From a virus (Duplodnaviria; Heunggongvirae; Uroviricota; Caudoviricetes), in IMG/VR virus record IMGVR_UViG_2541047706_000009: a stretch of 38,923 bases of DNA. One strand, 5' to 3'. A program made the translations under genes and the position numbers. Below the pieces are notes generated by a model. That model was not told where the DNA came from. It saw nothing but the letters and a program-made list of their open reading frames with translations, and did not search any database. Each line of letters opens with the position of its first letter. Position 1 is the stretch's first letter. This document shows positions 1,774 to 38,923 of this stretch, in pieces.

Positions 1774-2399
1774 ACCGCCAGCACCTTACTGGCAGTGATG
1801 TACCGCGCGCGCCGGTCGTCGATGCCGTTCCGGCCACCATTGATAATCAGAGTTACACGTGCAATATCGCCGGTATACTTCATGCATCCTTTGCTGGCGA
1901 AAAACCACGCCGCGCTACGAGCCGCATATTCGTCCTGCGCCAGCAGTTCAGGATTCTCCAGCAGGTCAACCTTCAGACCGTTTCCGCAATCACGATAGTT
2001 ATTCAAACCGGTAATCTGGATAAGTCCGCGACCTCGGTAATTCCATCCATCGCCGGGGGCATTGTTCCCCATGCGTTTGCTGTACACCAGATTGGCAATC
2101 GCTCTCTGGCGCTCAAGTGGCAATGGTGGTTCGCCTGCGCGTCGCCCCAATGCGTTGGCCTGTCCCTGGGTGAGACGCCCAGCCCGAACGAAGTTAGCCA
2201 GTCCGGTGACGCTGTAGTTGAAATTTTCCTGCAACTGGTTGAAGCCCCCAGACTCATGCCCGACTTGAGCAATAAACATTGCCTGCTCTTCTGGTTTGCT
2301 GATACCAAACTCTCTCATCGCAGAAGTTATATGCGAGAACCAGCGTGCAGCCAGCGCCTCGCTGATACCAGCAGCTCGCTGGAATTGTTTAATCTCCAT
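1770..2399 (-). CDS. Endolysin, family-19 glycoside hydrolase (chitinase-like lysozyme)
   Basis: Translation from [23 protein letters not shown].. carries GH19-like blocks ([29 protein letters not shown]). GAGG RBS. The ORF-track N-terminal extension to 2564 was trimmed. Confidence 0.75.
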
Positions 2400-2697
2400 G
2401 TTTAGACCTCGATACTTTGAAAATTTGAACGACGTTACCGCGCGTTTTAATAACCGCAGCGAGCATGACAGCGTTGATAATGACCTCAGATAAATCCACA
2501 GCCATTGGCGTGCGGAACCAGATTGCATAGGCAACACGAACCGGAATACTGGCCGCAGCAACAATCAGGAAATAAGCAAGCCACCCCCCCCATCTTCGAT
2601 GTTGAGATCCGTTACGCCGGAATGTGACAACGCGAATTGCTATGCCAGTACAAATAACTGCATTGGTGATAAGCAAAAAAAACTCATGCGTTACCAT
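2389..2697 (-). CDS. Small membrane protein, holin/antiholin candidate
   Basis: 102 aa with 2-3 predicted TM segments, directly upstream of and overlapping the endolysin start; GGGAGA RBS. Confidence 0.45.
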
Positions 2698-3097
2698 CGT
2701 CTTTTCTCCCCGGAATTAACTCGCGTGGATTATCGGAACGGTGATAGAGCCAGATGCCAATTCGTACTGCGACGATTGCTGACACAAATGCGCCAGCAGA
2801 GAAAACAATCCCTTTCTCGAAAGAGTCCTGCGTGATGGTAGGTATCAGGCTGGCTATGCCGATAAGAATTGATGCTGTGGGTTTGTAGAAGAGAAGACCG
2901 CAGAGAAAGCTGAGTAACGCCAGGAGAACGCGGCGCTTGACAGGATACTCTACTGCAGAGGTAACAAAAATTACCGCCCCGGCCAGCGATCCAAGCGCCA
3001 CTTCAGGAGGTACGCCGGCGATGACTGCCGCCAGCGCACCGTAGCTAAGCCCCTGATTTATCGTATCAGCTGTTAGCGATGCGGACATGATGACCAC
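2684..3097 (-). CDS. Multi-TM membrane protein, holin candidate
   Basis: About 135 aa, very hydrophobic with 3-4 TM segments, first gene of the lysis cassette. Start ambiguous between GTG at 3097 and ATG at about 3088. Confidence 0.45.
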   Translation of the reverse strand: MVIMSASLTADTINQGLSYGALAAVIAGVPPEVALGSLAGAVIFVTSAVEYPVKRRVLLALLSFLCGLLFYKPTASILIGIASLIPTITQDSFEKGIVFSAGAFVSAIVAVRIGIWLYHRSDNPRELIPGRKDDGNA

Positions 3098-3177
3098 CGT
3101 TTACTATGCATGATGAACCTCCTTAGTTGGGTAAGTTCATCATACACAATAAACCGTTTATGGATAAATGGTAATAG

Positions 3178-5340
3178 TTAAGCGCTGAAACCGCCGACTC
3201 TAACTTTTAGCGTAGAGAGATCAACATTAACAGTTATGTTTAATACACCACTCCCCGCTGAAATAGAGAATAAGCGCCGTCCGCCTGACGTTCCGCCCCC
3301 CGCCGGTGGAGTGGTATCGAGTTCACCTGTGATCGATATTGAAATGGTACCCTCACGGTTAGCAACGAGTAGCTCTAAACATTCAGCCCAGGTGTTTTGT
3401 GCAGAAGACCAAGCATCGATAAGGATTCTCTGCGTCGTTCTGTTTGGTATTGCGATGGATTTGACTTCACCTGTATTTACCAGACCTTGAAAACGAGTTC
3501 CGTAATCTATCCAGCTAATGCTATAACCTGCATTTGCTGCAGGGTCTTGAGAGGTATACCAGGTCTTGGTTCTCACGCCAGTATGACCGATTGTCAGTAG
3601 AGGACGAGCAAATTGATCTCGATGAATGTATGCATTATCTCTGATCCCGTTGCTCTGCAGATCAATATCTGCAGCACGTGGATTAGGGAAAGTCGCTTTT
3701 CCACCAACATCAAAAACATCATAATGATTTGCAACTGCAGGAATCCATCCGTTCCTGTCCAGATTTCTAAAGAAATCCTCGAAAGCCAGCCAGTATGATT
3801 GCTGATGACCTAAAAGGTTAGGGTGAACAGTCTGTATTTCAGGGGTCCGGTCAAATAATGCCGTTTCACCATATTTAGCAACAGCATCAAACCAGTATTT
3901 TTCCACATCGATAAGCACGCAACCCATTTCTACAGCGATTTTCCTGATCGCATCGTTTCCTCGAAGGAAGCGGACACCTGCTTGAATATTTACCCCATTC
4001 CACTCAAACGTGACATTTGAGTTTGCGGCAGATGGTATAATGTTATTATCAGAGACTGGGGCCGGAGAAGATGAAGGCCATATTTGAGAAATTCCAGCCG
4101 GCATGCTCCAGCTATATTCAGAAATATTCGGATGAGGTGTGGTTGTTAGCACAACATCCCCGCCGGCCTCCCTGACTAAATTAATAGCATTTCGAAGGCG
4201 CTGTTTAAATCCGTTTTCATTGAATGTTTGCCCGGCATTATATTGTGCGGTAGGAAAATCATTCATTCCATATATAAACAAAGCAATATCAGGATATATT
4301 CCTTCAGCAACAACTTCAGGCCATTGGTTAACAATAAAATTATTTATCGTTGAACCATTAACAGATTTGTTTGTGAAGTTAATGGGATAAATACGCTGCT
4401 TATTTAGCGTATCGTTCATATACTCAAAAAATTTAGCAACTGGTGCCTGTGTTGCTGGATCAGGAAGCGTAGCACCAACCCCAACAGAAGAACCAAACCC
4501 ATAGAGTCGAAATAAGTTCTGATAGCCAGAAACCCCATGCCGATAAGCTGTTAATTTATTGACGAAATTTGGGAAAAGGGCCTGTGATGATCCAGACGCA
4601 GCACGAATAGAAGCCTCTACCGTTCTTCCTGTTTCCGTAGCAACTAAGCCAGCACCGTCTTTTGATGCTAGCTTGATTGCCAAATCTGCCGTTTCAGTTT
4701 GCCCTGCAATCGGAACAGGATCCCCCTGGTCATTGAATCCAATCAGCATATTTGCTCTGGCTCGTACAGATGCCATGATTCCTACCTGACTTTCCGGAAC
4801 TCGCAAAGTTCGCTGGAAAAGACCATCTGCATGATGAGTGCTGTCATTGTCTCCCGAGTCCACATAAGATTTTGTTGCTGCATCCTGTGCCTGTGACGGG
4901 TCACGCAGATTACGAATGCGGTTGTTGAGTGCGTCGTAATAGTTCGCGATGAACGACGGCTTACGCAGCGCCAGGCGGAGAAAGCTGAAGCACTGCTGGA
5001 TAAGCATGGTCAGCTTGTCGAACGCATCCTCATGTACCTCTGCGAAAAATTTCCCCTGGTTACGCAGATCAGTCTCCTGGGTAACAGGCAAGTCACGTGA
5101 GATAGAGATTTGCCATCCGTTGGCCAGAGGTGACATCAACACAATGCTCCCACCTGAATAGCTTCCCGCCCCGGTAACGGAGTAATCGGTATCCAGAGTA
5201 AGTACCGTAATATTTTCGTTAAGGTCAGCAACCTGTACTGTCAGATCTGACTTCTTGAAAATACGAAACTTGTACGGGAAAGATGTGGTAACGCCGTTAC
5301 CAGTGTATTCGTTGTGGTCAACTTCGGTTGAGACCGTCAT
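3178..5340 (-). CDS. Tailspike/tail fibre with conserved N-terminal particle-binding domain and SGNH-hydrolase-like block
   Basis: 720 aa. N-terminus TVSTEVDHNEYTGNGVTTSFPYKFRIFKKSDLTVQV resembles the virion-attachment domain of podovirus tail fibres/spikes. Central region has GxND (IYGMNDF) and HPN motifs of SGNH/GDSL esterases. GGAG RBS. Confidence 0.7.
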   Translation of the reverse strand: MTVSTEVDHNEYTGNGVTTSFPYKFRIFKKSDLTVQVADLNENITVLTLDTDYSVTGAGSYSGGSIVLMSPLANGWQISISRDLPVTQETDLRNQGKFFAEVHEDAFDKLTMLIQQCFSFLRLALRKPSFIANYYDALNNRIRNLRDPSQAQDAATKSYVDSGDNDSTHHADGLFQRTLRVPESQVGIMASVRARANMLIGFNDQGDPVPIAGQTETADLAIKLASKDGAGLVATETGRTVEASIRAASGSSQALFPNFVNKLTAYRHGVSGYQNLFRLYGFGSSVGVGATLPDPATQAPVAKFFEYMNDTLNKQRIYPINFTNKSVNGSTINNFIVNQWPEVVAEGIYPDIALFIYGMNDFPTAQYNAGQTFNENGFKQRLRNAINLVREAGGDVVLTTTPHPNISEYSWSMPAGISQIWPSSSPAPVSDNNIIPSAANSNVTFEWNGVNIQAGVRFLRGNDAIRKIAVEMGCVLIDVEKYWFDAVAKYGETALFDRTPEIQTVHPNLLGHQQSYWLAFEDFFRNLDRNGWIPAVANHYDVFDVGGKATFPNPRAADIDLQSNGIRDNAYIHRDQFARPLLTIGHTGVRTKTWYTSQDPAANAGYSISWIDYGTRFQGLVNTGEVKSIAIPNRTTQRILIDAWSSAQNTWAECLELLVANREGTISISITGELDTTPPAGGGTSGGRRLFSISAGSGVLNITVNVDLSTLKVRVGGFSA

Positions 5341-5443
5341 GTTAAATCTCCAGATAGTCGCAGCACCCGTTGCGCCGCATATCTGGTTATTCTATTACCT
5401 GAAAAACCATATATGTATAGAAAGACTATAAATACCAATAGAT

Positions 5444-5460
5444 ATTACCTTTATGGTAAT
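5444..5460. promoter_or_regulatory. 17-bp palindromic operator-like site ATTACC-tttat-GGTAAT
   Basis: Perfect inverted repeat with 5-bp spacer in the divergent tailspike / candidate-antirepressor intergenic region; same motif as the sites flanking the repressor gene. Confidence 0.55.
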
Positions 5461-5496
5461 TTGCAAAACGTGCTGGATAGCAAACAAATTATTTGA

Positions 5497-5516
5497 TACT
5501 GTATAAATATACAGTT
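5497..5516. promoter_or_regulatory. LexA (SOS) box
   Basis: TACTGTATAAATATACAGTT matches the consensus TACTGTATATATATACAGTA at 18/20 with perfect CTGT-N8-ACAG; sits 20 nt upstream of the ATG at 5536. Confidence 0.7.
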
Positions 5517-5535
5517 ATTGCATGGAGAAGATAAG

Positions 5536-5793
5536 ATGCAGCGGTATCACTATCCACTGGAAGACGGATTTACCGAAAGGATTCACACGCCGGGAGGCGT
5601 CAGGTCACTGGTGGAGGGATCGCACTTGATGAAATTACTCCGGGATCTCGATAAGGATGGATTTAATGTCGATGGCCCACTTGCCGAACTGACTGCACTG
5701 ATTAACTACGTCACCAGCTCACAGATGTCTATGCAGGATCTGCAAACACATCTCGACTATTGTGCCGAACAATTACGAAAACAAACCACATAA
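5536..5793 (+). CDS. Small SOS-regulated protein, candidate antirepressor
   Basis: 85 aa (MQRYHYPLEDGF..). GGAGA RBS 7 nt upstream; promoter region carries a LexA box and an operator-like palindrome. Function inferred from regulatory context only. Confidence 0.45.
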   Translation: MQRYHYPLEDGFTERIHTPGGVRSLVEGSHLMKLLRDLDKDGFNVDGPLAELTALINYVTSSQMSMQDLQTHLDYCAEQLRKQTT

Positions 5794-25946: not shown

Positions 25947-25974
25947 CAAAATAAAGCCGCCATAGTTGGCGGCA
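25947..25974 (-). terminator. Rho-independent terminator upstream of the late operon
   Basis: gccgcc-aactat-ggcggc hairpin followed on the minus strand by tttatttt; about 45 nt upstream of the terminase small-subunit start. Confidence 0.6.
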
Positions 25975-27905: not shown

Positions 27906-28466
27906 TCACTCTCCTTTGATGCGAATGCCAGCGGCGCGTGGCACATTAACTTCCACGATGCGCACTGTTGGTTTGTACATCTCAATCGCTGTCAGCCAGT
28001 CAGCTCCTGTCATGCGCTTTTCCGCATCGCCATTAGTCCACTGAACCGGTACACCAATAGCCTTCATCGCGATTTCTATTTCCCCGGCAATGGCGCTTTT
28101 TCCGCAACCAGTAAAACCAGAAACAACGACAAGAACTTCACCTTTGGCTGGTTTTATTTCCCGTGCTTCCAGTTCTGCAATGCGCTTTTTGTCTGCTTCC
28201 CGTTCATCCAGTAGTGCCAGCACGGTAGCTGGACTGGCTGCGGCGATGAATTCAGCATTGGCCTGCTGTTCCATTTGGAAATCTTCATCGAAACCGCTTT
28301 CAGGATGCGCTCCTTCAATTCTGCAAATGGGAATATATCCAGCAGCCTCGCGATGAATTAGTGCATCATCACCATCAAATCGGCCCTCTCCATATTCGAG
28401 CGACCACACACCACACGTTGCTTTCTCTGCCTTTTCACGCAGTGCCTGATAGTCAATTTCGCTCAC
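27906..28466 (-). CDS. Ead/Ea22-like protein
   Basis: 186 aa; N-terminal MSEIDYQALREKAEKAT and internal ..ATVLALLDEREADKKRIAELEARE.. resemble the Ead/Ea22 family of lambdoid prophages (from memory). Confidence 0.45.
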   Translation of the reverse strand: MSEIDYQALREKAEKATCGVWSLEYGEGRFDGDDALIHREAAGYIPICRIEGAHPESGFDEDFQMEQQANAEFIAAASPATVLALLDEREADKKRIAELEAREIKPAKGEVLVVVSGFTGCGKSAIAGEIEIAMKAIGVPVQWTNGDAEKRMTGADWLTAIEMYKPTVRIVEVNVPRAAGIRIKGE

Positions 28467-28948
28467 TGTTTGCCCTCCTTCATAAAAATAATCCAGTGGG
28501 TCTTGTCACCTTTTCCTGTTCGTTGACCGATAACAGGCTTTCTGTCGGTCAGTGCCAATATCTGGCGAACAGGTATTTGCGTTTCATTCCATTTAAAAAT
28601 CAGAACGCCGGATGGACGCAACACACGAAAGGCTTCTTTAAATCCCTGCCGCAAATCATCACGCCAGGTATCTTTATTCAGTCGTCCATATTTCTTTCCC
28701 ATCCAGGCGTTATCACCAACACGCTCAAGATGCGGAGGGTCGAATACAACCATCGAAAAGGATGCGTCTGCAAATGGTAGTGCACGAAAATCAGCTATCA
28801 GGTCAGGACTGATAATCAGGCGTCGTCCATCACATAATGTGTGCTCTTCCTTTCTGATATCGCTAAATATCGCCCGGTCGTCATTCTTATCGAACCAGAA
28901 CATGCGACTGCCACAGCACATGTCGAGGATTGCTGCATTTCCAGTCAC
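28463..28948 (-). CDS. DNA methyltransferase (amino-methyltransferase type)
   Basis: About 161 aa from GTG with AAGGAGG RBS; SAM-binding-like block ILDMCCGSRMFWF and catalytic DPPH tetrapeptide (VVFDPPHL). Start overlaps the upstream stop (GTGA). Confidence 0.55.
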   Translation of the reverse strand: MTGNAAILDMCCGSRMFWFDKNDDRAIFSDIRKEEHTLCDGRRLIISPDLIADFRALPFADASFSMVVFDPPHLERVGDNAWMGKKYGRLNKDTWRDDLRQGFKEAFRVLRPSGVLIFKWNETQIPVRQILALTDRKPVIGQRTGKGDKTHWIIFMKEGKQ

Positions 28949-29610
28949 TGGCTGCCTCCTTTGCGAATCTGTTCCGCCCATTCTTCAAGGGATTTTTCCG
29001 CATATTCACCGGACAGGCCATCAATCGGATGCGGTTCATTAGCCAACTCTTCTTTCGCTGACAAAATCATGCGTGTAACGTCGAAAACTTCACGCAAAGA
29101 CTTATTGATAAATCCGTGATTGAACGCAGCAGCAAGACGGCTGGCGGTATAGTTAATCCCCTCGTTGCGTGCTTCCGCACGAATTTCAGACAGGAAAGCA
29201 TCGGTGGCCGGGGTTTCAACACGGATGCTGTCGCGCAAGATGAAAAATGCATTGAGCATTCCAGTCTCTGGCGCTTCATCCTGATGCTTCTCATACGCAT
29301 CAAGAGCCTTCATCATCTCAGGTCCGAATGGTTGAGGTTGCACATACTTCAGCCCCGCATTCTCCACTGCCAGCGCCGAAAACTTATCGTGTGCCAACTT
29401 AACAGCTGCATCAGCCTGCTTAATTGACTCAATCGCTTTCTGTTGGTCTTCGGCCAGCGCATTAGCACGCACCAGTTGCACTTCCAGTTGCGTTGCCAAA
29501 TCGCTGATCAGCTTTGCCACACTACGCATATCAACGGCACCACATTCTGCTTTCAGTTCCGAAGCCATCTCATGCCCGGCGGCAACTAACCCTTTGATAT
29601 TACTTTCCAT
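28945..29610 (-). CDS. Hypothetical protein coupled to the methyltransferase
   Basis: 221-aa helical/acidic ORF whose stop overlaps the methyltransferase start. Confidence 0.4.
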   Translation of the reverse strand: MESNIKGLVAAGHEMASELKAECGAVDMRSVAKLISDLATQLEVQLVRANALAEDQQKAIESIKQADAAVKLAHDKFSALAVENAGLKYVQPQPFGPEMMKALDAYEKHQDEAPETGMLNAFFILRDSIRVETPATDAFLSEIRAEARNEGINYTASRLAAAFNHGFINKSLREVFDVTRMILSAKEELANEPHPIDGLSGEYAEKSLEEWAEQIRKGGSQ

Positions 29611-29671
29611 CTTTACCCTCGCTTATCCACATAACTTATTGATTACATTGATAACTAAAAAGATCGTCGAT

Positions 29672-30016
29672 TCAGAACTTTTCGATGTTCCAGCCACCAC
29701 CTGCTTTCTTTGGTTTAACCGTTACCCCGATGATTCGGAACGGATACTGATCTGCGGCGACTTTGGTTTTCACCCTGGCGTCGTCGGTCCAGAAACCTTT
29801 CACTTCGTGCAGTTCCATCTCGCCGGTGGCGAGCATCACAGCAAAATCGGGCGTATAGAACGTGTTGTCAGCTAACCGCAGCTTGATACCCTCAAATCGA
29901 TACCAGACGATTTCTCCTGCACGTTTACGCAGCTCAAGGTGCTGGCAATACGCAGATTCTGTTTTGTTCATCTGACCTGTTTTGAGTCGACCAAGAGCCT
30001 GTATCTGTTTTCTCAT
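29672..30016 (-). CDS. DUF1064-family protein
   Basis: 114 aa; pattern KTE..Y...LEL.K.AGEI..........L.L......Y.PDF.V......E.HEVKG..T matches DUF1064 phage proteins. Confidence 0.5.
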   Translation of the reverse strand: MRKQIQALGRLKTGQMNKTESAYCQHLELRKRAGEIVWYRFEGIKLRLADNTFYTPDFAVMLATGEMELHEVKGFWTDDARVKTKVAADQYPFRIIGVTVKPKKAGGGWNIEKF

Positions 30017-30018
30017 GA

Positions 30019-30035
30019 TTTACCTCTGAGGTAAT
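30019..30035. promoter_or_regulatory. Operator-like palindrome TTTACC-tctga-GGTAAT
   Basis: Lies 3 nt upstream of the DUF1064 start codon and includes its RBS. Confidence 0.5.
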
Positions 30036-30080
30036 TAAAAACCACATAAGACACGAAATCAATAGATTTTAGAATATTTT

Positions 30081-30097
30081 ATTACCTAACAGGTAAT
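30081..30097. promoter_or_regulatory. Operator-like palindrome ATTACC-taaca-GGTAAT
   Basis: Perfect site between the P-like gene stop and the DUF1064 gene. Confidence 0.5.
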
Positions 30098-30133
30098 TGT
30101 CGAGGCGTAAAAAAATGCGCTATCGCGCTGGTA

Positions 30134-30934
30134 TTACTTGATAAATCCTGCCGCCTTTCCCCGCCTGTATTCCTCCATCAGCCACTGCGCCGGTGTTATT
30201 CCCCCAAGGGTGGCGGCGTTAGGCATGCACCCGAAACTTCGCCCTGGTGGATGGTAAACGTCTCTCCCTGTGTCCGGAGGTGTACTCATGGGTTCTGGCT
30301 TTGCCTGTATGCTGATCACCGGATCGGGTATCTGCTGTCCGGAAGCCACCTTTTTCGCCCAATCATCGAGCAGCCTGCGCGCGTGTTTCTCAACCTCAAT
30401 CTCGCTAAGCTGGCGCTGATACATTGCACGGCGGGTATCACATACGACCCAGTACATAACCGGATGTCGCCACGGGAATCTTTCGGGACCACCAGGATAT
30501 AAACTTTTTTCCTTGCTGTACCGGTGAAACTCCGCCATCACATCGTCAATGGTGACGCCAAGAACCATCTTGCTGTCTTTGCACCACTTGATAAATTGCC
30601 CTGGAGACGGCCAGAACGGAGATTCACTGGCGCGGGCGTGGCGCATACCAGCAGAAACCTGTTCACGGGTTCGGATCCCCCCTTCGGCAAACGCAGCAAT
30701 CCACTGCTGTTTTGCAGCAACTTCCTGCTCTGGCGTCTTCAGGTTGGTTACCACTGCCGCCGGAAACAGTTGTTTCAGCTGTTTAAAAAGGGCATCAACA
30801 AGCCTCTCTGCTGACATGTTCACCACATTGTCATTGTTGACGTACTGATGCTCATAACCTGACATGCGAGAAAGGGCTTCTCCGTCACGGTTTTGTATCG
30901 CGGTAAAAACGTTGTTCACAAGAAATCCTCCCAT
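30134..30934 (-). CDS. Replication protein P-like (helicase loader)
   Basis: 266 aa; block ..MRHARASESPFWPSPGQFIKWC.. matches lambda P ..MRVARRQNRPFLPSPGQFVAWC.., and the N-terminal region also aligns. Confidence 0.75.
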   Translation of the reverse strand: MGGFLVNNVFTAIQNRDGEALSRMSGYEHQYVNNDNVVNMSAERLVDALFKQLKQLFPAAVVTNLKTPEQEVAAKQQWIAAFAEGGIRTREQVSAGMRHARASESPFWPSPGQFIKWCKDSKMVLGVTIDDVMAEFHRYSKEKSLYPGGPERFPWRHPVMYWVVCDTRRAMYQRQLSEIEVEKHARRLLDDWAKKVASGQQIPDPVISIQAKPEPMSTPPDTGRDVYHPPGRSFGCMPNAATLGGITPAQWLMEEYRRGKAAGFIK

Positions 30935-31755
30935 GCTTCAGGGCTGTTCCAGTGCGGAACGTTGTTATCAGGTAATGTTGATTGCTTCTGTCTGCTAATC
31001 TGCAGCCGCCTTGCCAGCTTCTGCTCCCACTGTGCCTGATGGTATGCCTTACCCTCAGCCATCCAGTAAATTCTGAACTCTGCAAGTTCCTGTGCCGTTG
31101 GCAGACTGTCCAGGTAGATCCCCTGCAATGAGCTTTTCCGAAGAAAGTCATCTGATGGCTGCCATTGTTCATGCATGACAAATTTGCCTAATTGCCCTGG
31201 CCCACCAGGAGGAACAAAGTTATTCATCACGGCGTTGTTTGCGCCGGGGTCATGAGGCACAGAATCCCCGCTTTTTGTCCTGCTCTCCCTCTCTTGGTTA
31301 AATGACTGGTTATATGACTGGTTCTGGATCCCGTTTTTGGGATCATTCAACATCCCGTTTTTGGGATCATTCAACATCCCGTTTTTGGGATCATTCAACA
31401 TCCCGTTTTTGGGTATATTCCCGTTTTCGGTAACATTACCGTTTTCGGGTTCATTACCCCCCTCCCGGTTGCCTTTAATGTTCCCGTTTTTGGTTATATT
31501 AAGAGAGAAAACCCGTACTCTTTTCGTCGCCCCCTTTCTCTCTCCGGTATCTGAAATAAGCCCCATTTTCATGAGCGATATAAGCCCGGCCTGCACGGTT
31601 TTTTTATTCAGGCAAGTGTCTTTAACGAGGCGTTCTATGCTGGGGTAGCAGAGGTTATATTCATCGGCTCTGTCAGCCATCGAGAGCAGTATGAGCTTTA
31701 ATGATGAGCTACCTGGATCTGTCTCCCAGGCCCAATCTGTTGCATGTCTGCTCAT
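30916..31755 (-). CDS. Replication initiator O-like protein containing the origin iterons
   Basis: 279 aa; helical N-terminal domain; the central region encodes the repeated PKNGMLND peptide from the iterons; directly upstream of the P-like gene; GGAG RBS. Confidence 0.65.
   Translation of the reverse strand: MSRHATDWAWETDPGSSSLKLILLSMADRADEYNLCYPSIERLVKDTCLNKKTVQAGLISLMKMGLISDTGERKGATKRVRVFSLNITKNGNIKGNREGGNEPENGNVTENGNIPKNGMLNDPKNGMLNDPKNGMLNDPKNGIQNQSYNQSFNQERESRTKSGDSVPHDPGANNAVMNNFVPPGGPGQLGKFVMHEQWQPSDDFLRKSSLQGIYLDSLPTAQELAEFRIYWMAEGKAYHQAQWEQKLARRLQISRQKQSTLPDNNVPHWNSPEAWEDFL
31328..31458. repeat. Origin iterons: 3 perfect 24-bp repeats plus degenerate copies
   Basis: ATCCCGTTTTTGGGATCATTCAAC at 31328-31351, 31352-31375 and 31376-31399, then degenerate CCCGTTTTTGG / CCGTTTTCGG copies and an AT-rich stretch; each perfect unit contains GATC. 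Confidence 0.7.
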
Positions 31756-31770
31756 GATTAATCTCCGCTA

Positions 31771-31971
31771 TCAGCTTGAGTGTTGTGGGGAGGAATTAAT
31801 CATGATCTGCTTAATCTCTGCCCTGATGCGACGGTTTGATTCCATGGTGCACTCAACACAGTGTCCGTTGTAAACCCAGCGTTCACTGTCATGTCCGTGC
31901 TTACATGGTTTTCCGGTGTAGTAGCGTTTAAGTCCGCGCTTTGCGGCATCAATACGTGTAATGATTTCCAT
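31771..31971 (-). CDS. Small zinc-ribbon protein (CII-position gene)
   Basis: 66 aa from ATG 31971 (MEIITRIDAAKRG..) with C-x-H..C-x-x-C motif; sits between the cro-like and O-like genes. Confidence 0.4.
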   Translation of the reverse strand: MEIITRIDAAKRGLKRYYTGKPCKHGHDSERWVYNGHCVECTMESNRRIRAEIKQIMINSSPQHSS

Positions 31972-32050
31972 GGTAAGCCCTGTTATTAGTATTGGGATTA
32001 CGGTTATTTTGTGCTGACACAAAAAAAAGATCAACCATATTTGGTTTTTT

Positions 32051-32067
32051 ATTACCTTTGAGGTACG
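32051..32067. promoter_or_regulatory. Operator-like palindrome ATTACC-tttga-GGTACG
   Basis: Between the zinc-ribbon gene and the terminator that follows the cro-like gene. Confidence 0.4.
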
Positions 32068-32080
32068 AATAGATATGAAA

Positions 32081-32100
32081 AGACCGCCGGATGGCGGTCT
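32081..32100 (-). terminator. tR1-like terminator after the cro-like gene
   Basis: agaccgcc-ggat-ggcggtct hairpin followed on the minus strand by ttttcat. Confidence 0.55.
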
Positions 32101-32121
32101 ACAGAGGGTTGTGGCTGGATA

Positions 32122-32352
32122 TCATGAGTAGAAGAAGTATGCCAGTTCTGCTTTTGAGCGCAGCCATTGTCTTGTTTTACAGGCTTTAAAAAGCCCATTC
32201 ATCAATACCTTACCTGGCATTTTGCGCTTACCTGTTAAGTGAGTCTGGATATAGTGACTCGTCGTTCCGGCTTCCTGTGCGAAGGCTTCACGCTCATCCG
32301 GAGTAAGTGCAAGCCAGTGCTTTTTGAAATCGAAATGTCCGTTATCGCTCAT
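32122..32352 (-). CDS. Cro-like early regulator (first gene of rightward-type operon)
   Basis: 76-aa basic protein divergent from the repressor gene across an intergenic region with three operator-like palindromes. Confidence 0.45.
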   Translation of the reverse strand: MSDNGHFDFKKHWLALTPDEREAFAQEAGTTSHYIQTHLTGKRKMPGKVLMNGLFKACKTRQWLRSKAELAYFFYS

Positions 32353-32387
32353 AGCTATTGCCTGATATTTATTTCAGATAATAAATA

Positions 32388-32452
32388 TTCACCCATAAGG
32401 TAACAAAAATCAAGGATAGTTACCTGTGGGGTGCATTTACCTGTTGGGTAAT
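32388..32452. promoter_or_regulatory. OR-like region with three operator-like sites and divergent promoters
   Basis: TTCACC-cataa-GGTAAC (32388-32404), GTTACC-tgtgg-GGTGCA (32419-32435, weaker) and TTTACC-tgttg-GGTAAT (32436-32452). On the minus strand, a TTGATT -35 and GAATAT -10 flank the first site. Confidence 0.6.
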
Positions 32453-32506
32453 ATTGCTTTAAATTGAATCATCTACTGATTCATATATGAGGCGATTTTC
32501 CAGAAA

Positions 32507-33091
32507 ATGAAAAGTATCCAGGACGTCCGCAGGCAAAATCTCAACGACTTGATCGACCGTGAATGCAATGGTGTTCAGACGCGGATGGCAGAAAAACTTG
32601 GAACTCAGGCAAATCTGGTAAACCGCTGGGCTCTTGGCAAGAAGGTTATCGGCGACCAGGTTGCACGAAAAATTGAAGCTGCCGCCAATAAACCCCGTAA
32701 CTGGCTTGATATTGATCGTTCGCTTTCTCAGGAGGGTTTTCAGCCTGTCGGCCCGAGCGATATAGGTCAGCTGGCGGCTCACAACCTGGAACGCTGGATG
32801 AGCGAAAGCCGCGACCTTTCAACACAGGGAAAACTTCACCGCGCATCCGGCGTCGCCCAGGTGACAATCAGCCGCCTGTTAAACAATGAGGTCAGCGTTT
32901 CCATTTCCACCCTGGAGAATGTTGCATCCGCATTCGGGCGTCACGGCTATGAATTACTGATTCACCCGCACGACCCTGCGACCATCAACTATGATCGCTC
33001 GCGCTACGCATTGTTACCCGAAACCGAGAAAGCAAAGATCGAAAGTTACATTGAATTTGTCATCAACCAGAACGAAAAAAACAAACAATAA
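32507..33091 (+). CDS. Putative prophage repressor, tandem HTH, no S24 peptidase domain
   Basis: 194 aa with two helix-turn-helix-like segments (..VQTRMAEKLGTQANLVNRWALGKK.. and ..ASGVAQVTISRLLNNEVSVSISTLENVASAFG..); no Ala-Gly/Ser-Lys autocleavage signature. Flanked by operator clusters and followed by a terminator. Confidence 0.55.
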   Translation: MKSIQDVRRQNLNDLIDRECNGVQTRMAEKLGTQANLVNRWALGKKVIGDQVARKIEAAANKPRNWLDIDRSLSQEGFQPVGPSDIGQLAAHNLERWMSESRDLSTQGKLHRASGVAQVTISRLLNNEVSVSISTLENVASAFGRHGYELLIHPHDPATINYDRSRYALLPETEKAKIESYIEFVINQNEKNKQ

Positions 33092-33112
33092 AACCATATT
33101 TTTCAGTAAGTA

Positions 33113-33136
33113 AGCCGCCTTATGGCGGCTTTTTTA
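33113..33136 (+). terminator. Rho-independent terminator after the repressor gene
   Basis: agccgcc-ttat-ggcggct hairpin followed by TTTTTT. Confidence 0.65.
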
Positions 33137-33147
33137 TTGTCTATTCG

Positions 33148-33226
33148 ATTACCTAACGGGTAATTTTTTTAACTCATATCTATTGACATCAAACCATATA
33201 CGCATAATTATTACCTCAACGGTAAC
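33148..33226 (+). promoter_or_regulatory. OL/pL-like region with two operator-like sites and TTGACA
   Basis: ATTACC-taacg-GGTAAT (33148-33164), TTGACA at 33183-33188, ATTACC-tcaac-GGTAAC (33210-33226). Confidence 0.55.
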
Positions 33227-33244
33227 AGACCGAGGTAACAAGTT

Positions 33245-33397
33245 ATGCAGTGGAAAATCATCAACGGTTGGTACTGCGTTACTGCATGCGGATTCATGAG
33301 CTGGAAGTTCCGCACCTTACAGGAAGGCATTAAGTGGGCTTTCGTCAGCAAAGAAGCTAGCGATGTGGCCAACGATAACGAGATATGGGAGGGCTGA
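33245..33397 (+). CDS. Small protein (50 aa), first gene of leftward-type early operon
   Basis: ATG with GAGGT RBS 9 nt upstream; below the ORF-track size cutoff, found by manual translation. Confidence 0.35.
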   Translation: MQWKIINGWYCVTACGFMSWKFRTLQEGIKWAFVSKEASDVANDNEIWEG

Positions 33398-33399
33398 TA

Positions 33400-33699
33400 A
33401 TGAACGTTAATCAGCAGAAAAATCTTCAAAAAATCATGCTGGCATTCGACAAGGACTACCGTCTGTCAGAACAGCTATATGACCGACAAGTTGAACTGAT
33501 TGAGAGTATCCGGCTTCATCAACTGGCATCAACTTTCGACGTTGTAACAGTTAAAGGCGTTCGCCAGGAAGTACTGGAGGCCGCTAAAGACAGCCCTGAG
33601 TTCGAAGAACTAATGGATGCCTACCGGCGCGAGGCAATGGCAATTATCGCCCGCTGGGATCTGGCTGATCAGCTTGATGGGCAGAGGGACGCGGCATGA
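33400..33699 (+). CDS. Hypothetical early protein
   Basis: 99 aa from ATG 33400 with GGGAGGG RBS; its stop overlaps the next start (ATGA). Confidence 0.45.
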   Translation: MNVNQQKNLQKIMLAFDKDYRLSEQLYDRQVELIESIRLHQLASTFDVVTVKGVRQEVLEAAKDSPEFEELMDAYRREAMAIIARWDLADQLDGQRDAA

Positions 33700-33902
33700 A
33701 ACCAACACTCCTCTCATTGCTGCGAGGTGGAAAACACAGCATCCGAGATATGGCAAAGATTCTTGGTATCTCAAGATCGAAGGTTTCTTGGTTCATCGCT
33801 GAGCTTGAACGTCGCAAATGGGTAGAGGTAACCATGAGCGCAATATATTTCCACGATGGAACCCGTTCCAACAAGCAGAACGAATACAAGGTTAAGTTAT
33901 GA
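33696..33902 (+). CDS. Small HTH DNA-binding protein
   Basis: 68 aa with helix-turn-helix-like segment (SIRDMAKILGISRSKVSWFIAEL); coupled to both neighbours by ATGA overlaps. Confidence 0.45.
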   Translation: MKPTLLSLLRGGKHSIRDMAKILGISRSKVSWFIAELERRKWVEVTMSAIYFHDGTRSNKQNEYKVKL

Positions 33903-34720
33903 ATACTGGCATCTATTTCGACATCAGCAATGAGGACTACCACGCCGGTGACGGCGTGAGTAAGTCGCAACTGGACATGGTTGCCAAGAATCCGGCGCTT
34001 CTTAAATGGGTTCAGGCAGCACCAGAAGACGAAGAGAAAAAGTCTGCACTGGATATGGGAACCGCATTGCACTGTCTGCTTCTGGAGCCTAGAGAGTTCG
34101 ACAAACGCTTCATTGTTTCACCGAAATTCGATCGTCGGACGAAACAAGGTAAAGCTGACGAAGAGGCATTTCTTCGTGATGTGGCGGATATGGGGATTAC
34201 GGTACTTGATGCCGAGCAGTGGCGGAAACTGGAGCTGATGCGTGATAGCGCAATGGCTCACCCGGCGGCACGCTGGATGTTGGAAGCACCTGGTTACTGC
34301 GAAGCATCAATGTACTGGAACGATGAAGAGACGGGTGAGTTGTGCCGAATTCGTCCAGACAAATGGCTGAACGAGCACAACGTGATCGTCGACGTGAAAA
34401 AGGTTGCAGATATGGACCGTTTTGCACGCCACATCGAGGAATTCCGCTACCACGTGCAGGACGCAATGTACCGCGAAGGCGCAATGAGGGTTACTGGTCA
34501 GCCGCATGGTTTTTTCTTTCTTGCCGTGAGCGAAAGCATTGATTGTGGTCGGTATCCGGTACGCGTGTTCGAGCTGGATGCGCAGGATGTCGATGCCGGG
34601 CACGCTCTGTTCCGCCGGGATCTGAATACCTATCACGAATGCCGCATCAATGATGAATGGGGCGGTGTGGAAATCATTAAACGCCCTGAGTGGGCACGCA
34701 AACAGGATATGTACATATGA
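33899..34720 (+). CDS. PD-(D/E)XK-type exonuclease (RecE/YqaJ-like recombination nuclease)
   Basis: 273 aa; acidic residues and a D-x-K block (IVDVKKV) consistent with a PD-(D/E)XK fold; immediately upstream of and coupled to the annealing-protein gene. Confidence 0.55.
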   Translation: MNTGIYFDISNEDYHAGDGVSKSQLDMVAKNPALLKWVQAAPEDEEKKSALDMGTALHCLLLEPREFDKRFIVSPKFDRRTKQGKADEEAFLRDVADMGITVLDAEQWRKLELMRDSAMAHPAARWMLEAPGYCEASMYWNDEETGELCRIRPDKWLNEHNVIVDVKKVADMDRFARHIEEFRYHVQDAMYREGAMRVTGQPHGFFFLAVSESIDCGRYPVRVFELDAQDVDAGHALFRRDLNTYHECRINDEWGGVEIIKRPEWARKQDMYI

Positions 34721-35658
34721 GCAACGACATCGCAAACATCAACGCACCAGTAGACACAGCAATCGCTGGAACTGCTGCAACTATTTTCAGCCCAGACGGC
34801 TTGAACCAACTGATGAAATTCGCCGAGGTAATGGCGCAAAGCCGCGTAACGGTACCGGCGCACCTCGCCGGGAAACCAGCTGATTGCATGGCCGTGGCAA
34901 TGCAGGCTGCGCAGTGGGGAATGAACCCGTTTGCCGTGGCTCAGAAAACCCATGTTGTGAACGGCACGCTAGGTTATGAAGCCCAATTAGTAAACGCAGT
35001 TATCTCAACGATGTCGCCAACAAAAGATCGCATCAACTACGAGTGGTTTGGGCCGTGGGAACGCGTGATCGGTAAGTTTGTTGAGAAAACATCCAAAAAC
35101 GGCAATCCATATATCGCACCAGGCTGGACTCTAAAAGACGAAGAAGGCTGCGGTGTTCGCGTATGGGCAACCATGAAGGGCGAGGATCAACCTCGAGTGC
35201 TTGAGTTAATGCTGTCTCAAGCACAGGTAAGAAACTCCACACTTTGGGCCAGTGATCCGAAACAACAACTCGCATACCTTGCGACAAAACGCTGGTCTCG
35301 CCTGCACTGTCCTGACGTAATCATGGGCGTCTACACCCCAGACGAATTACAGGAAACGGCACCGCGCGTTGAGCGAGACATTACTCCGCAAACGACAACT
35401 GCTGCGGGAATGAACAGTCTGATCAACGCTAAAACAGTGAAAAAGCCTGATGAGCAAACGCGTAAAGCGGATAGCCGTGATCCAGAAGAAATGCTGATGG
35501 CCTTTACCAGCGCAGCGATGAATTACAGCACTGTCTCCGAACTGGATAAGGCTTACAAATACATTGCACAAAAACTTTCAGATGATGACGAACTGCTGGC
35601 AAAAGCCACCGACGTTTACAGCGTTCGTCGGGAAGAATTAAACGAAATATCTATGTAA
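34717..35658 (+). CDS. RecT/Bet-family single-strand annealing protein
   Basis: 313 aa from ATG 34717; block ..CMAVAMQAAQWGMNPFAVAQKTHVVNG.. parallels the Bet/RecT core (..LLIVANQYGLNPWTKEIYAF..). Confidence 0.6.
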   Translation: MSNDIANINAPVDTAIAGTAATIFSPDGLNQLMKFAEVMAQSRVTVPAHLAGKPADCMAVAMQAAQWGMNPFAVAQKTHVVNGTLGYEAQLVNAVISTMSPTKDRINYEWFGPWERVIGKFVEKTSKNGNPYIAPGWTLKDEEGCGVRVWATMKGEDQPRVLELMLSQAQVRNSTLWASDPKQQLAYLATKRWSRLHCPDVIMGVYTPDELQETAPRVERDITPQTTTAAGMNSLINAKTVKKPDEQTRKADSRDPEEMLMAFTSAAMNYSTVSELDKAYKYIAQKLSDDDELLAKATDVYSVRREELNEISM

Positions 35659-35707
35659 CCACCACCGCGGCGCCACGCGCGCCGCACTGCAACCAAGAGA
35701 GGTATTT

Positions 35708-35956
35708 ATGAAAGGTGCATTAGGTAAGAAGGAACTCCTGGCGGTGGTGCCACTGTCATGGAGCACTATCGACCGTATGGAGCGCGCAGGTGAATTTCCT
35801 AAACGCTGGTATATCACTGACAAACGCTGCGCATGGAACCGTGACGAAGTTGAGCGTTGGCTTGATGAACGTCAGGCAGCAAGCCCGGCAGAGTTCCAGG
35901 GTAAAAAGCCTCCTGTTCAGCAACGTGTATATCGTCCTGTGAGCAACGCTGCATGA
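35708..35956 (+). CDS. AlpA/Xis-family DNA-binding protein (candidate excisionase)
   Basis: 82 aa; ..LSWSTIDRMERAGEFPKRWYITDKRCAWNRDEVERWL.. fits the AlpA/Vis-type HTH pattern; lies about 1.7 kb from the P4-type integrase. Confidence 0.55.
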   Translation: MKGALGKKELLAVVPLSWSTIDRMERAGEFPKRWYITDKRCAWNRDEVERWLDERQAASPAEFQGKKPPVQQRVYRPVSNAA

Positions 35957-36113
35957 GTGCGCTGCTAAGGCACTGGAGCAAATGGTCAGGATGGTACTTA
36001 TTCCTGGCCTCTGTTTCAGCATGGCTTTATCTGCTGGCATTAATTTTCAGAGAGGGTTGGATTAAGTGAGAAAGTTAAGCCGACTTGAAAAATATCACAT
36101 GAACAAGGTTTCA

Positions 36114-36365
36114 ATGCGCAGCCCTTCAAAGATTGTCGCCGTTACTCCTGCGGCGATAGAGATCGAAAAACGCGCGATTGAAAGAGAGAAAAAAGGGCAA
36201 TTCCGCATTGCCGCTCACCTTTGGCTTCAGTGTATGGATGTTGCTTCTGGTGATGTTGAACGTGCAAGGATCGCGGTTCGCAGGGACCAATGTATCACAA
36301 AAGGTAACGGCCTTCGCCGTGGCGACTATAGCGGCATAGGATGTTGTGGGGTGGTTTATGACTAA
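36114..36365 (+). CDS. PerC-family-like small regulator
   Basis: About 83 aa from ATG 36114 with AAGG RBS (upstream starts at 36066/36099 possible); ..FRIAAHLWLQCMDVASGDVERARIAVRRDQC.. resembles the PerC pattern. Confidence 0.4.
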   Translation: MRSPSKIVAVTPAAIEIEKRAIEREKKGQFRIAAHLWLQCMDVASGDVERARIAVRRDQCITKGNGLRRGDYSGIGCCGVVYD

Positions 36366-37008
36366 GAAATACACACTAATCTATGCAGATCCACCCTGGG
36401 TATACCGGGACAAAGCCGCAGATGGTAATCGCGGTGCCAGTTTTAAATATCCGGTTATGAGTGTGATGGATATCTGCCGCCTTCCTGTGTGGGATTTGGC
36501 CGATGAAAACTGTCTGTTGGCCATGTGGTGGGTGCCAACACAACCACTCGAAGCGCTAAAAGTTGTTGAAGCCTGGGGATTCCGTCTGATGACCATGAAG
36601 GGCTTCACGTGGATAAAATGTGGTAGTCGACAACCAGATAAACTGGTTATGGGTATGGGGCACATGACTCGCGCCAATAGTGAAGATTGCCTGTTTGCGG
36701 TAAAGGGAAAACTACCTACGCGCATTAATGCAGGGATCGTTCAGTCATTTACCGCACCGCGGCTTGAGCATTCAAGAAAACCAGATATCGTTCGTGAAAA
36801 ACTTGTGCAATTGTTAGGCGATGTTTCTCGCATTGAACTGTTCGCCCGCCAGACGTCTCATGGCTTCGATGTTTGGGGTAATCAGTGCGAAGACCCGGCA
36901 GTGCAACTACACCCTGGATACGCGTTGGATATTGGCGGATTAACAAATGCATTCAGCAATGCTCCGGTGTCACCAATAGACAACCAGGGGCGGGAGCGTG
37001 CAGCATGA
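36358..37008 (+). CDS. MT-A70-like DNA N6-adenine methyltransferase
   Basis: 216 aa from ATG 36358; catalytic DPPW in YADPPWVY near the N-terminus, typical of MT-A70 enzymes. Confidence 0.65.
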
Positions 37009-37664
37009 ACCTATATCAACGCATCAATGGCGCTGACTGGTGCAATATCTTCGTCGTCGGCGATCTGCATGGGTGCTACACGCTGCTGATGAACGAACTC
37101 GACAAAGTTTCATTCGACCCGGCGCGCGATTTACTTATTTCCGTTGGTGACCTTGTTGACCGCGGCGCTGAAAACGTCGAATGCCTGGATTTGATTACTA
37201 TGCCGTGGTTCCGAGCTGTTCGTGGCAACCATGAGCAGATGATGCTGGATGCACTGGTCAACGGCGGAAGTTTCGGACATTGGATGTCAAACGGCGGTGG
37301 ATGGTGGCACCAACTTGATTCTGAGCAGGATGTGCAACTCAAATACCTTCTGCCAAAGATTACCAACCTCCCGATGATTATCGAACTGGTTACCGGCAAT
37401 AAGAAGGTCGTCATCTGTCACGCAGACTACCCGCACAACGAATACGCATTCGATAAGCCAGTACCAGAAGAAATGGTGATATGGAATCGTGAACGGGTTA
37501 GCGACGCGCAGGACGGTATTGTCTCGGAGATAACCGGTGCCGATTTGTTCATCTTCGGTCATACGCCAGCACATCACCCACTGGTGTATGCAAACCAGAT
37601 GTACATCGACACCGGCGCAGTGTTCTGCGGAAATCTGACGCTTACCAAAGTCCAGGAAGGATAG
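37005..37664 (+). CDS. Ser/Thr protein phosphatase (lambda-phosphatase-like)
   Basis: 219 aa from ATG 37005; GDLHG, GDLVDRG and GNHE motifs of the PPP metallophosphatase family; start overlaps the methyltransferase stop (ATGA). Confidence 0.75.
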
Positions 37665-37666
37665 AA

Positions 37667-38923
37667 TTATTTATTACTGTCTTCCATCCACTTCTCAAAC
37701 TTCGACGGGGAGAACGGAATCAGATCCGTATGCTCCCCGTTAATCCAGGAATCAATCATATCGGCCCACTGCTGCAACATGTAGGCGCGCTGTCTGGCGT
37801 ATTCCGCTTTGTTATATACGGCGCGCACACCTTTCTGCTCATGTGCCAGAGCCTTTTCAATCCAGTCTGAAGGATAACCAGCCTCATGCAACAACGTACT
37901 GGCTGTACGGCGCATATCGTGTACGGTGAAGTCCTGAATATTCTCACCATCTTCATTTATTATTTTCACCGTTCTGTCGATCAGAGAGTTCAGCGCGGCA
38001 TTAGATAATGGCTTCCTGAAATTGTAACGACCAGGAACCAGATATTCACTTCCACCAGCGCACATCTGCAACCCGACCAATATATCCTGAGCCTGTTTAG
38101 GCAGGTAAATAACATGCGCCCGGCTTCCCTTCATGCGGTCTGAAGGAATTGTCCATGTCCATTTTTTAAAATCTATTTCATCCCACGTTGCATTGGTGAA
38201 TTCGCCCTTACGAACCATAGTGATAAGCACCAGTTTTAAAGCCATTTTCATAGTGCCCATAGCACCAATGGCATCCAACGTGCGGAAGAACAGGCCAATT
38301 TCTTCTGGTGTCAGTGTTCGCTCTCGTGGTTTAAATATGGCGATAGACGAAGGTTTAATGTCAGCCGCAGGATTAAACAAACCATGACCACGGTCATTGG
38401 CGTGACGGTATACGCTGCTGATGATCTCCCTGGCCTGTACTGCTGTTGCCCGACCACCACGTTCGACAATCCGGTCACACAAATCACGAACCATCGATGT
38501 GGTAATTTCAGCCATCATTTTGTTGCCAAGAACCGGAAGTATGTCACGGTCGATCACCGCCTGCTTCATTGCTCGGGTACTGTCAGCCAGGATGACGTGT
38601 TTCATATAACTGTCGGTATGTACCGCAAACGTCTCGGCACCACGAATCTTTTTGATACCGTCACGTTTAGCCGCAGCCGGCGACTGGCCTGCTTTAAGCA
38701 GCTTCTTTGCAGCAATCAGTTCTTCTCGCGCTTCTGCTAGACTGATACCGTCACGCCCATACTGCCCGATTACCAGTGTTTCGCGGCGACCGTTGATACG
38801 GTAGTCATAGCGAAACGAGACCGTGCCTGACGTAAGCACAGCTACATACAGCCCGTCACGATCGGAGACCTTGTACAGTTTGTCCTGCGGCTTGAGGTTT
38901 TTTAATTTTGTATCGGTAAGCAC
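37667..38923 (-). CDS. P4-type tyrosine integrase (5' end at window edge)
   Basis: 418 aa readable; N-terminal LTDTKLKNLKP..DGLYVAVLTSG..SFRYDYRINGRRETLVIGQYG arm-binding domain and C-terminal catalytic domain (..HDMRRTASTLL..). Reading frame begins with GTG at the last window bases, so the true start may lie just outside. Confidence 0.8.
   Translation of the reverse strand: MLTDTKLKNLKPQDKLYKVSDRDGLYVAVLTSGTVSFRYDYRINGRRETLVIGQYGRDGISLAEAREELIAAKKLLKAGQSPAAAKRDGIKKIRGAETFAVHTDSYMKHVILADSTRAMKQAVIDRDILPVLGNKMMAEITTSMVRDLCDRIVERGGRATAVQAREIISSVYRHANDRGHGLFNPAADIKPSSIAIFKPRERTLTPEEIGLFFRTLDAIGAMGTMKMALKLVLITMVRKGEFTNATWDEIDFKKWTWTIPSDRMKGSRAHVIYLPKQAQDILVGLQMCAGGSEYLVPGRYNFRKPLSNAALNSLIDRTVKIINEDGENIQDFTVHDMRRTASTLLHEAGYPSDWIEKALAHEQKGVRAVYNKAEYARQRAYMLQQWADMIDSWINGEHTDLIPFSPSKFEKWMEDSNK

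Follow-up and report, generated by a model that had tools for sequence, protein, structure and literature searches.

The stretch of viral DNA analyzed here (IMG/VR record IMGVR_UViG_2541047706_000009, Caudoviricetes), hereafter called the window at its full length of 38,923 nucleotides, carries two genes for methyltransferases dependent on S-adenosylmethionine (SAM): a small enzyme with a DPPH motif and an enzyme of the MT-A70 family, the latter followed directly by a gene for a Ser/Thr phosphatase. We consider it reasonably probable that the window is a phiV10-like prophage bearing two solitary amino-methyltransferases as accessory cargo, both probably acting on DNA, and that the phosphatase gene forms an independent cassette. 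The identity of the genes, their family membership, the absence of a nuclease and the swap of the cassette are demonstrated below; the substrates, the timing of expression and the biological role of both methyltransferases are what we infer. To judge from its relatives, the window is essentially the whole of a temperate podovirus prophage of Escherichia coli, of phiV10/epsilon15 type (genus Uetakevirus). Its right-hand 13 kb are 96-98% identical to phiV10, PAS61, phiv142-3 and related phages, and the segment 35700-37700 is 100% identical to prophages adjacent to guaA in E. coli BE311 and other strains. The features central to this report are the following.

28463-28948, minus strand: small stand-alone SAM methyltransferase of 161 amino acids (phrog_954; PADLOC MTase_II / oMTase; AlphaFold model)

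28730-28741, minus strand: codons of the DPPH catalytic motif of this enzyme (residues 70-73, within FDPPHL; sequence and family alignments)

36358-37008, plus strand: MT-A70 family, β-class (DPPW) N6-adenine methyltransferase of 216 amino acids (Pfam PF05063 over its full length)

36388-36399, plus strand: codons of the DPPW catalytic motif (residues 11-14; ADPPW, residues 10-14), aligning with the DPPW of the MT-a70 family chain 7f4r

37005-37664, plus strand: lambda NinI-type Ser/Thr phosphatase of 219 amino acids, a cassette at the place where phiV10 has DUF1382 (1G5B, phrog_246, junction alignment)

Both methyltransferase open reading frames (ORFs) of the initial annotation were verified at these coordinates together with their starts, motifs and family matches, and the motifs and matches indicate that both genes encode real SAM-dependent amino-methyltransferases. 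The MT-A70 gene starts with the ATG at 36358, the same start as in RefSeq, and its product matches PF05063 over positions 1-172 of the 172-position profile (E = 1e-22; 81.1 bits against a cut-off of 23.9), which, with the DPPW motif, bears out its earlier description as an MT-A70-like DPPW enzyme. The protein is 96% identical over all 216 residues to gp33 of phiV10 (PhiV10p33, a 'putative adenine methylase' according to the phiV10 record), and in both phages the gene lies past the genes for an AlpA-like protein, a small membrane protein and a PerC protein, stands before the integrase and closes with an identical ATGA overlap. Among solved structures, the best sequence matches are MT-a70 family proteins of Tetrahymena (7f4l and related entries; E = 2e-13) and METTL3 (E = 4e-6), which share the DPPW core. 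At a nucleotide identity of at least 95%, the gene is found in 537 of 5426 complete E. coli genomes. Two other phage enzymes from the literature were set aside: pneumococcal phage SpSL1 has an 'N6 adenine methylase' whose expected product, N6-methyladenine (m6A), was not detected (PMC6755750), and this protein, when checked, proved to belong to neither of the two families of the window; the Dam-type enzyme of phage Phi24B is unrelated.

The small methyltransferase gene starts with a GTG at 28948, seven bases past an AGGAGG; this GTG and the TGA of the ORF preceding the gene (28945-29610) overlap, as do the TGA of the gene itself (28463-28465) and the GTG of the ORF following it (27906-28466). 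In the protein, motif I (ILDMCCGSR, residues 7-15, forming the SAM loop) precedes motif IV (FDPPHL, residues 69-74), and D70, P71, the near-invariant P72 and H73 are kept across the family alignments. Profile searches returned phrog_954 of PHROGs ('DNA methyltransferase', E = 1e-88) and two REBASE-derived PADLOC models (MTase_II PDLC03288, E = 7e-75; a second model, E = 9e-51), together with weak matches only in Pfam (Methyltransf_11 and Methyltransf_25), and NCBI labels the protein 'class I SAM-dependent methyltransferase', once 'TRM11 family'. AlphaFold modeling with 20 close homologues gave an unusable model, with a predicted local distance difference test score (pLDDT) of 50; with 43 more diverse homologues the pLDDT rose to 85, and the resulting model is that of a bare class I Rossmann methyltransferase, in which all 161 residues lie inside the catalytic fold and no target-recognition domain is seen.

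Foldseek searches with this model placed M.TaqI on top, with Trm11 and PrmC also nearest and TrmN/Trm14 and RsmC among the top matches, while sequence and profile searches of the PDB returned no solved relative. The catalytic domain of M.TaqI, Trm11 and PrmC share with the small enzyme the class of gamma-order (D/N)PP(Y/F/H) amino-methyltransferases, at an identity of only 15-19%, and the small enzyme has none of their additional domains, which are a DNA-recognition domain in M.TaqI, a THUMP domain in Trm11 and an N-terminal domain in PrmC. Because of its motif order and its fold neighbours we class it as an amino-group methyltransferase of gamma type that has no domain for target recognition. 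A prophage enzyme of Staphylococcus aureus, PamA (141 amino acids, NPPY motif, GATC target), resembles it in size and motif position, a likeness from which no relationship is claimed (PMC12435837).

The phosphatase gene is equally well identified, its product aligning without gaps with lambda phosphatase (PDB 1G5B; E = 9e-100, 67% identity over 217 residues), keeping the metal-binding and catalytic motifs GDLHG, GDLVDRG and (R)GNHE in register and matching Pfam Metallophos (E = 1e-15). Its score against NCBIfam PRK11439 (266 bits) is under the equivalog cut-off of 326, and the protein is therefore a homologue of PrpA/PrpB rather than an equivalog. The overlap of the MT-A70 stop codon (TGA, 37006-37008) with the start of this lambda-phosphatase-like gene (ATG, 37005-37007) was correctly noted in the initial annotation, but the 'coupling' of the two genes that it read into this overlap does not hold. 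The MT-A70 genes of phiV10 and of E. coli CRKP-1 end in the identical overlap with DUF1382 downstream, and the block of PerC, methyltransferase and phosphatase genes is present in only 143 of the 537 methyltransferase-bearing complete E. coli genomes (~27%). When the junctions of the window, phiV10 and CRKP-1 are aligned, the sequences are near-identical through GCAGCATGAAC, which comprises the MT-A70 stop codon and the start and second codons of the next gene, and are unrelated from there on. Since the same overlap precedes DUF1382, it must be ascribed to the methyltransferase gene, whose 3' end is conserved and has interchangeable cassettes behind it. Compared in this way, the phosphatase is best described as a swapped-in, independent cassette and not as a functional partner of the MT-A70 enzyme.

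The third element of the argument is the solitary condition of both methyltransferases, for which the genes around the small enzyme are most relevant.

27906-28466, minus strand: Ead/Ea22-like protein of 186 amino acids, downstream of the small methyltransferase gene, its GTG overlapping the methyltransferase stop (Pfam PF13935, E = 3e-22)

28945-29610, minus strand: 'eae-like' accessory protein of 221 amino acids, upstream, its stop overlapping the methyltransferase start (phrog_614, unknown function)

29672-30016, minus strand: DUF1064 protein, labelled Holliday-junction resolvase in PHROGs, the nuclease-type gene nearest to the small methyltransferase (Pfam, PHROGs)

The 'eae-like' ORF gave no match in Pfam, PADLOC or PDB sequences and no nuclease signal, and the Ead/Ea22-like ORF gave no significant PDB sequence match and no nuclease or PADLOC signal. 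The two are mosaic homologues of phiV10p46 and phiV10p48, respectively, and in phiV10 p46 and p48 flank a different small gene, encoding a hypothetical protein of 74 amino acids; the flanking ORFs are thus not partners of the small methyltransferase, which lies in a slot for variable cargo. Both phiV10 and the BE311 prophage have the DUF1064 gene and the RecE-like gene but are without the small methyltransferase at this position. When all 52 candidate proteins of the whole window were compared with PADLOC and Pfam, none matched a restriction-endonuclease model and the two methyltransferases alone gave strong matches of defence type, in agreement with the earlier statement that no cognate restriction enzyme adjoins them. 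By these profile searches both methyltransferases are orphans, that is, solitary enzymes without a cognate nuclease on a mobile element. The earlier placement of the small gene in a 'nin-like region' was only loosely right: the gene does lie between the replication genes and the terminase, and its surroundings are accessory genes of ea/ead type. Of note, a Walker-A-like P-loop, GFTGCGKS (28095-28118, minus strand), occurs in the Ead/Ea22-like protein within its C-terminal half; it is conserved in phiV10p48 and is followed by only ~60 residues.

The family of the small enzyme is large. Among 1.8 billion representatives searched, it comprises 457 clusters at E <= 1e-30 and 1575 at E <= 1e-10; the best 150 representatives have 112-318 amino acids and none has a fused domain, so that fusions give no hint at the target. 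Homologues with 46-76% identity occur in phages of Streptococcus, Listeria, Enterococcus, Gordonia and Corynebacterium as well as in phages of Bacteroides, Porphyromonas, Vibrio, Acinetobacter and Pectobacterium, and the gene matches 944 of the 5426 complete E. coli genomes (80-100% nucleotide identity), with up to five copies per genome. The phrog_954 relatives of Pectobacterium phage ZF40 (gp20), Gordonia phage Nymphadora (gp67) and Streptococcus phage T12 (gp28), with ~160 amino acids and 47-75% identity, have the same invariant GSR...FDPPHL motifs and the same accessory position in the early or replication module, whereas their neighbours differ phage by phage; several of them, unlike the window enzyme, adjoin a second DNA methyltransferase, as is the case for family members in Nymphadora, ZF40 and LoVEphage. 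A survey of 80 related IMG/VR loci yielded 153 immediate neighbours, which fall into more than 55 sequence clusters. The 150 neighbours scanned with Pfam include no restriction enzyme; the commonest family is a large C5 cytosine DNA methylase (13 of the 80 loci), next come Ead/Ea22, DUF977, DUF4222 and DksA/TraR zinc-finger proteins, and an MT-A70 enzyme and an HNH-AP2 homing-type endonuclease occur once each.

Several individual loci of this family deserve mention. In the 13 loci just cited (at ~3490-5780 of each) and in ZF40 (gp21, 2965-5118), a protein of 650-765 amino acids with a C5 methylase domain is encoded directly 3' of the small methyltransferase, the two genes forming a two-methyltransferase block. 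The 95-kb Enterobacter phage phiT5282EW carries homologues of both window methyltransferases in one cluster (3501-3977 and 4974-5639, about 1 kb and at most 1.5 kb apart), the small one 63% and the MT-A70 one 42% identical to those of the window; all genes of this cluster are annotated as hypothetical. Many enterobacterial homologues (248 amino acids; for example P0010 and P0088) possess an extra C-terminal extension of ~88 amino acids without a family match, which from its sequence could be either a genuine fusion or the result of reading on into the gene that follows. The copy in E. coli O157:H7 strain 3-5-1 (locus 3497-3970) is a pseudogene with an internal stop, located in a degraded prophage near yfdR.

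The explanation that we favour for these data runs as follows. The two methyltransferases lie in different operons, each apparently controlled by the repressor, and would thus presumably be made mainly after induction or infection. The MT-A70 gene is conserved in the early pL-type operon throughout this group of phages, and its product most likely writes m6A. On DNA its target would probably be GATC or a similarly short site, a prediction that derives from the 83% identity to the group of M.EcoGV and M.EcoPA8orf6770P. A passage in PMC10810198 reports, after Fang et al. 2012, that M.EcoGV, which is highly similar to the latter enzyme, methylates GATC on overexpression, and REBASE-based tables in PMC6602927 list it as GATC-specific. 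The reported activity of the M.EcoPA8orf6770P group on ribosomal RNA (rRNA), for its part, depends on the protein PNB-2, which the phage of the window lacks. The small DPPH enzyme is a catalytic core encoded in a hypervariable accessory slot downstream of the replication genes. Its most likely substrate is replicating phage DNA, modified at a site that is short or only loosely defined, which would let the progeny escape restriction in the next host; we favour such self-modification of phage DNA mainly because the family adjoins recognised DNA methyltransferases. The phosphatase gene replaced DUF1382 at a recombination-prone junction between methyltransferase and integrase, its overlapping start being inherited operon architecture. 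For both methyltransferases, a DNA target is plausible.

Several observations weigh against this explanation. GATC occurs 153 times in the window, with 151 expected from base composition; it is thus neither depleted nor enriched, and composition, the counts of other palindromes included, is uninformative about the target. Gong et al. saw only weak DNA activity for a relative of the MT-A70 enzyme acting alone and argue for an RNA target (PMC10810198). The nearest folds of the small enzyme include methyltransferases of transfer RNA (tRNA), rRNA and protein (Trm11, TrmN, RsmC and PrmC), and the unusual degree to which it is conserved between phyla would also agree with a universal substrate, RNA or protein. 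The literature searched contains no characterised member of the small family, methylation by either protein is a prediction, and the promoter and terminator calls behind the proposed operons are consensus matches only.

The first alternative concerns the MT-A70 enzyme, which might act mainly as a 16S rRNA m6A methyltransferase that tunes prophage induction, with PerC perhaps standing in for PNB-2 as targeting subunit; we regard this as unlikely. The gene that matters here is the one upstream of the methyltransferase.

36114-36365, plus strand: gene for a small regulator of the PerC family, its last 8 nucleotides overlapping the MT-A70 start (Pfam PF06069, E = 6e-7; phrog_868, E = 6e-62); its start is uncertain, RefSeq placing it at 36114 and the longest ORF at 36066

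The comparison with M.EcoPA8orf6770P, gp5 of the Shiga toxin (Stx) phage PA8, is what makes this alternative attractive. That MT-A70 protein, also with DPPW, is 83% identical to the window enzyme over residues 1-187, which span the catalytic region, and its gene is likewise found close to the integrase in a lambdoid prophage, with its start overlapped by a small upstream gene, encoding in both phages a putative nucleic-acid-binding protein. According to Gong, Chakraborty and Koudelka, PA8 gp5 alone is nearly inactive; it binds PNB-2, encoded by the upstream gene that overlaps its own, and in this complex acts preferentially on 16S rRNA, and the gp5 gene increases spontaneous induction of the Stx prophage (PMC10810198). 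Partner subunits are generally required by MT-A70 enzymes, and the eukaryotic complexes (METTL3-METTL14) are heteromers with an inactive paralogue and nucleic-acid-binding subunits (PMC7544214). Of the 29 full-length E. coli genomes sampled, all but one have PerC (28 genomes) immediately before the MT-A70 gene. On the other hand, the window, unlike the eukaryotic systems, encodes no paralogue and any partner is hypothetical; PNB-2 is absent from it (tblastn gave nothing significant, the best E being 0.4), and the PerC-family protein that takes its place has no detectable similarity to it. The C-terminal tails of the two enzymes are wholly different after residue 187, where the alignment stops, and the ~27 C-terminal residues proposed to be necessary for the PA8 holoenzyme, through binding of PNB-2, are not kept in the window enzyme. 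The rRNA claim for the PA8 enzyme itself is based on SAM-consumption assays in which the modified base was left unmapped (PMC10810198). Finally, adjacency of PerC is not obligatory, as a DGQHR protein (together with DUF1317 in SPN1S) lies between PerC and the methyltransferase in SPN1S and CRKP-1.

The upstream gene does indeed vary among relatives. In Salmonella phage SPN1S (1009-2594) and the E. coli CRKP-1 prophage (1934-3645), it encodes the DGQHR-domain protein, of 331-355 amino acids, and overlaps the MT-A70 start by 1-4 nucleotides, and in Vibrio phage douglas 12A4 (865-2627) a 376-amino-acid 'PmgS-like' protein is encoded directly upstream of the MT-A70 gene, again with an overlap in this range. 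With DGQHR, PmgS-like and PNB-2 proteins found in this place, the MT-A70 catalytic gene evidently travels with interchangeable upstream genes.

A comparably unlikely alternative is that the small DPPH enzyme methylates a protein amide, or else a base of tRNA or rRNA, for example (giving, say, N2-methylguanosine or m6A), and so alters host translation during infection. The presence of Trm11, TrmN/Trm14, RsmC and PrmC among its top folds is in line with this, as are the lack of a DNA-recognition domain, the NCBI names, which are those of a generic class I methyltransferase or once of the TRM11 family, and the 46-64% identity between phages of different phyla. Yet the protein contains neither THUMP nor any further domain for RNA binding, a Trm112-like partner is not evident, the best Foldseek match is M.TaqI, the family repeatedly adjoins bona fide DNA methyltransferases, and both PHROGs and the REBASE-derived PADLOC models class it with DNA methyltransferases, labels that are themselves predictions.

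It is quite doubtful, in our estimation, that at least one of the enzymes is something other than a plain DNA methyltransferase, for instance in that the MT-A70 protein is the catalytic half of a two-part, possibly RNA-directed m6A writer whose targeting subunit comes from the gene just upstream. PerC in the window, PNB-2 in Stx phages and the DGQHR protein in SPN1S would then be the candidate subunits. If true, such a writer would tie the PerC/Pch virulence regulators to adenine methylation of RNA or DNA.

We hold it to be very unlikely that the MT-A70 enzyme and the phosphatase form a functional, translationally coupled pair, with the phosphatase regulating, for instance, the methyltransferase or a target shared with it. 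Besides the ATGA stop/start overlap, what speaks for such a pair is that the phosphatase allele (>=95% identity) is found almost only here, with 146 records of the allele and 143 genomes with the block. However, in phiV10 and CRKP-1 an identical overlap with identical first two codons leads into DUF1382, homology stopping exactly there; ~73% of the methyltransferase-bearing genomes are without the phosphatase; and stop/start overlaps also join several other adjacent genes in both operons. The homologous phosphatase gene of lambda, ninI, belongs to the nin region, where there is no methyltransferase. It is part of the rightward operon in lambda, whereas in the window the phosphatase gene is the last of the leftward early operon, beside the integrase.

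It is extremely improbable that both methyltransferases are the modification halves of restriction-modification systems with an overlooked nuclease: the best PADLOC models are named 'Type II methyltransferase' and the same operons contain the PD-(D/E)XK-type DUF1064 gene and the RecE-like nuclease gene, but no restriction-endonuclease model is matched by any of the 52 proteins, phiV10 and the BE311 prophage keep DUF1064 and RecE/RecT irrespective of the small methyltransferase, the immediate Ead/Ea22 and 'eae-like' flanks have no nuclease signal, and the neighbours at the 80 related loci are hypervariable and include no restriction enzyme.

Returning to the two enzymes as solitary, probably DNA-acting cargo, both genes belong to well-populated families and are already annotated in RefSeq, where the same two-methyltransferase prophage arrangement is found, for example, in E. 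coli UTME-10 with the genes ~7 kb apart; no new kind of system is involved. The significance of the analysis is partly corrective, in that the phosphatase 'coupling' is, on comparison, a cassette junction and the label 'DNA methyltransferase' is a predicted one for both families. Moreover, the small family without a recognition domain, when clustered at 50% identity, still numbers hundreds of clusters and spans phages of several phyla, so that one functional assignment would cover many phage genes, and the role of the variable upstream gene bears on the DNA-versus-rRNA dispute over phage MT-A70 enzymes.

The remaining features define the layout of the prophage, which is lambdoid: the repressor gene (32507-33091, plus strand) is followed by a terminator and then by a pL-like promoter.

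33112-33131: terminator of the repressor gene (prediction)

33183-33211, plus strand: pL-like promoter (TTGACA-17-AATTAT, 10/12 matches) directly past the repressor terminator, for the early operon, whose last two genes are those of the MT-A70 enzyme and the phosphatase

37667-38923, minus strand: tyrosine integrase, convergent with the early operon, at the prophage end beside guaA (RefSeq context in E. coli BE311)

30076-30103, minus strand: promoter-like site 5' of the accessory operon with the small methyltransferase (consensus scan, 10/12 matches)

25956-25973, minus strand: terminator-like site closing the accessory block (prediction)

The early operon contains the genes for a RecE-like nuclease, RecT, an AlpA-like protein, a 38-amino-acid membrane protein, PerC, the MT-A70 methyltransferase and the phosphatase, and no terminator is predicted on the plus strand from its promoter at 33183-33211 to 37664. 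The membrane protein, encoded between the AlpA-like and PerC genes (35953-36066, plus strand), is 100% identical to that of phiV10p35. The opposite strand carries cro-like, O-like and P-like genes, then the promoter-like site and the chain of small accessory genes. Within the O-like replication gene (30916-31755, minus strand), 3.6 perfect copies of the 24-bp unit ATCCCGTTTTTGGGATCATTCAAC are found at 31328-31413, and a degenerate 18-bp array (31403-31458) comes after them. These arrays probably represent the iterons of the origin; every 24-bp copy has a GATC, and adenine methylation there, by the host Dam or possibly by the phage MT-A70 enzyme, could therefore touch the origin.

Two further observations concern the window as a whole and its left end. 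CTAG occurs only 9 times in the window, with ~30 expected from a Markov model and ~151 from base composition, and no other tested palindrome of 4-6 bp is as strongly depleted. At the prophage end opposite the integrase, the ORF at 1-516 (plus strand), which opens at the first base of the window, encodes a glycine-zipper 2TM domain with a TraT-like match below threshold, and its product may be that of a lysogenic-conversion or exclusion gene.

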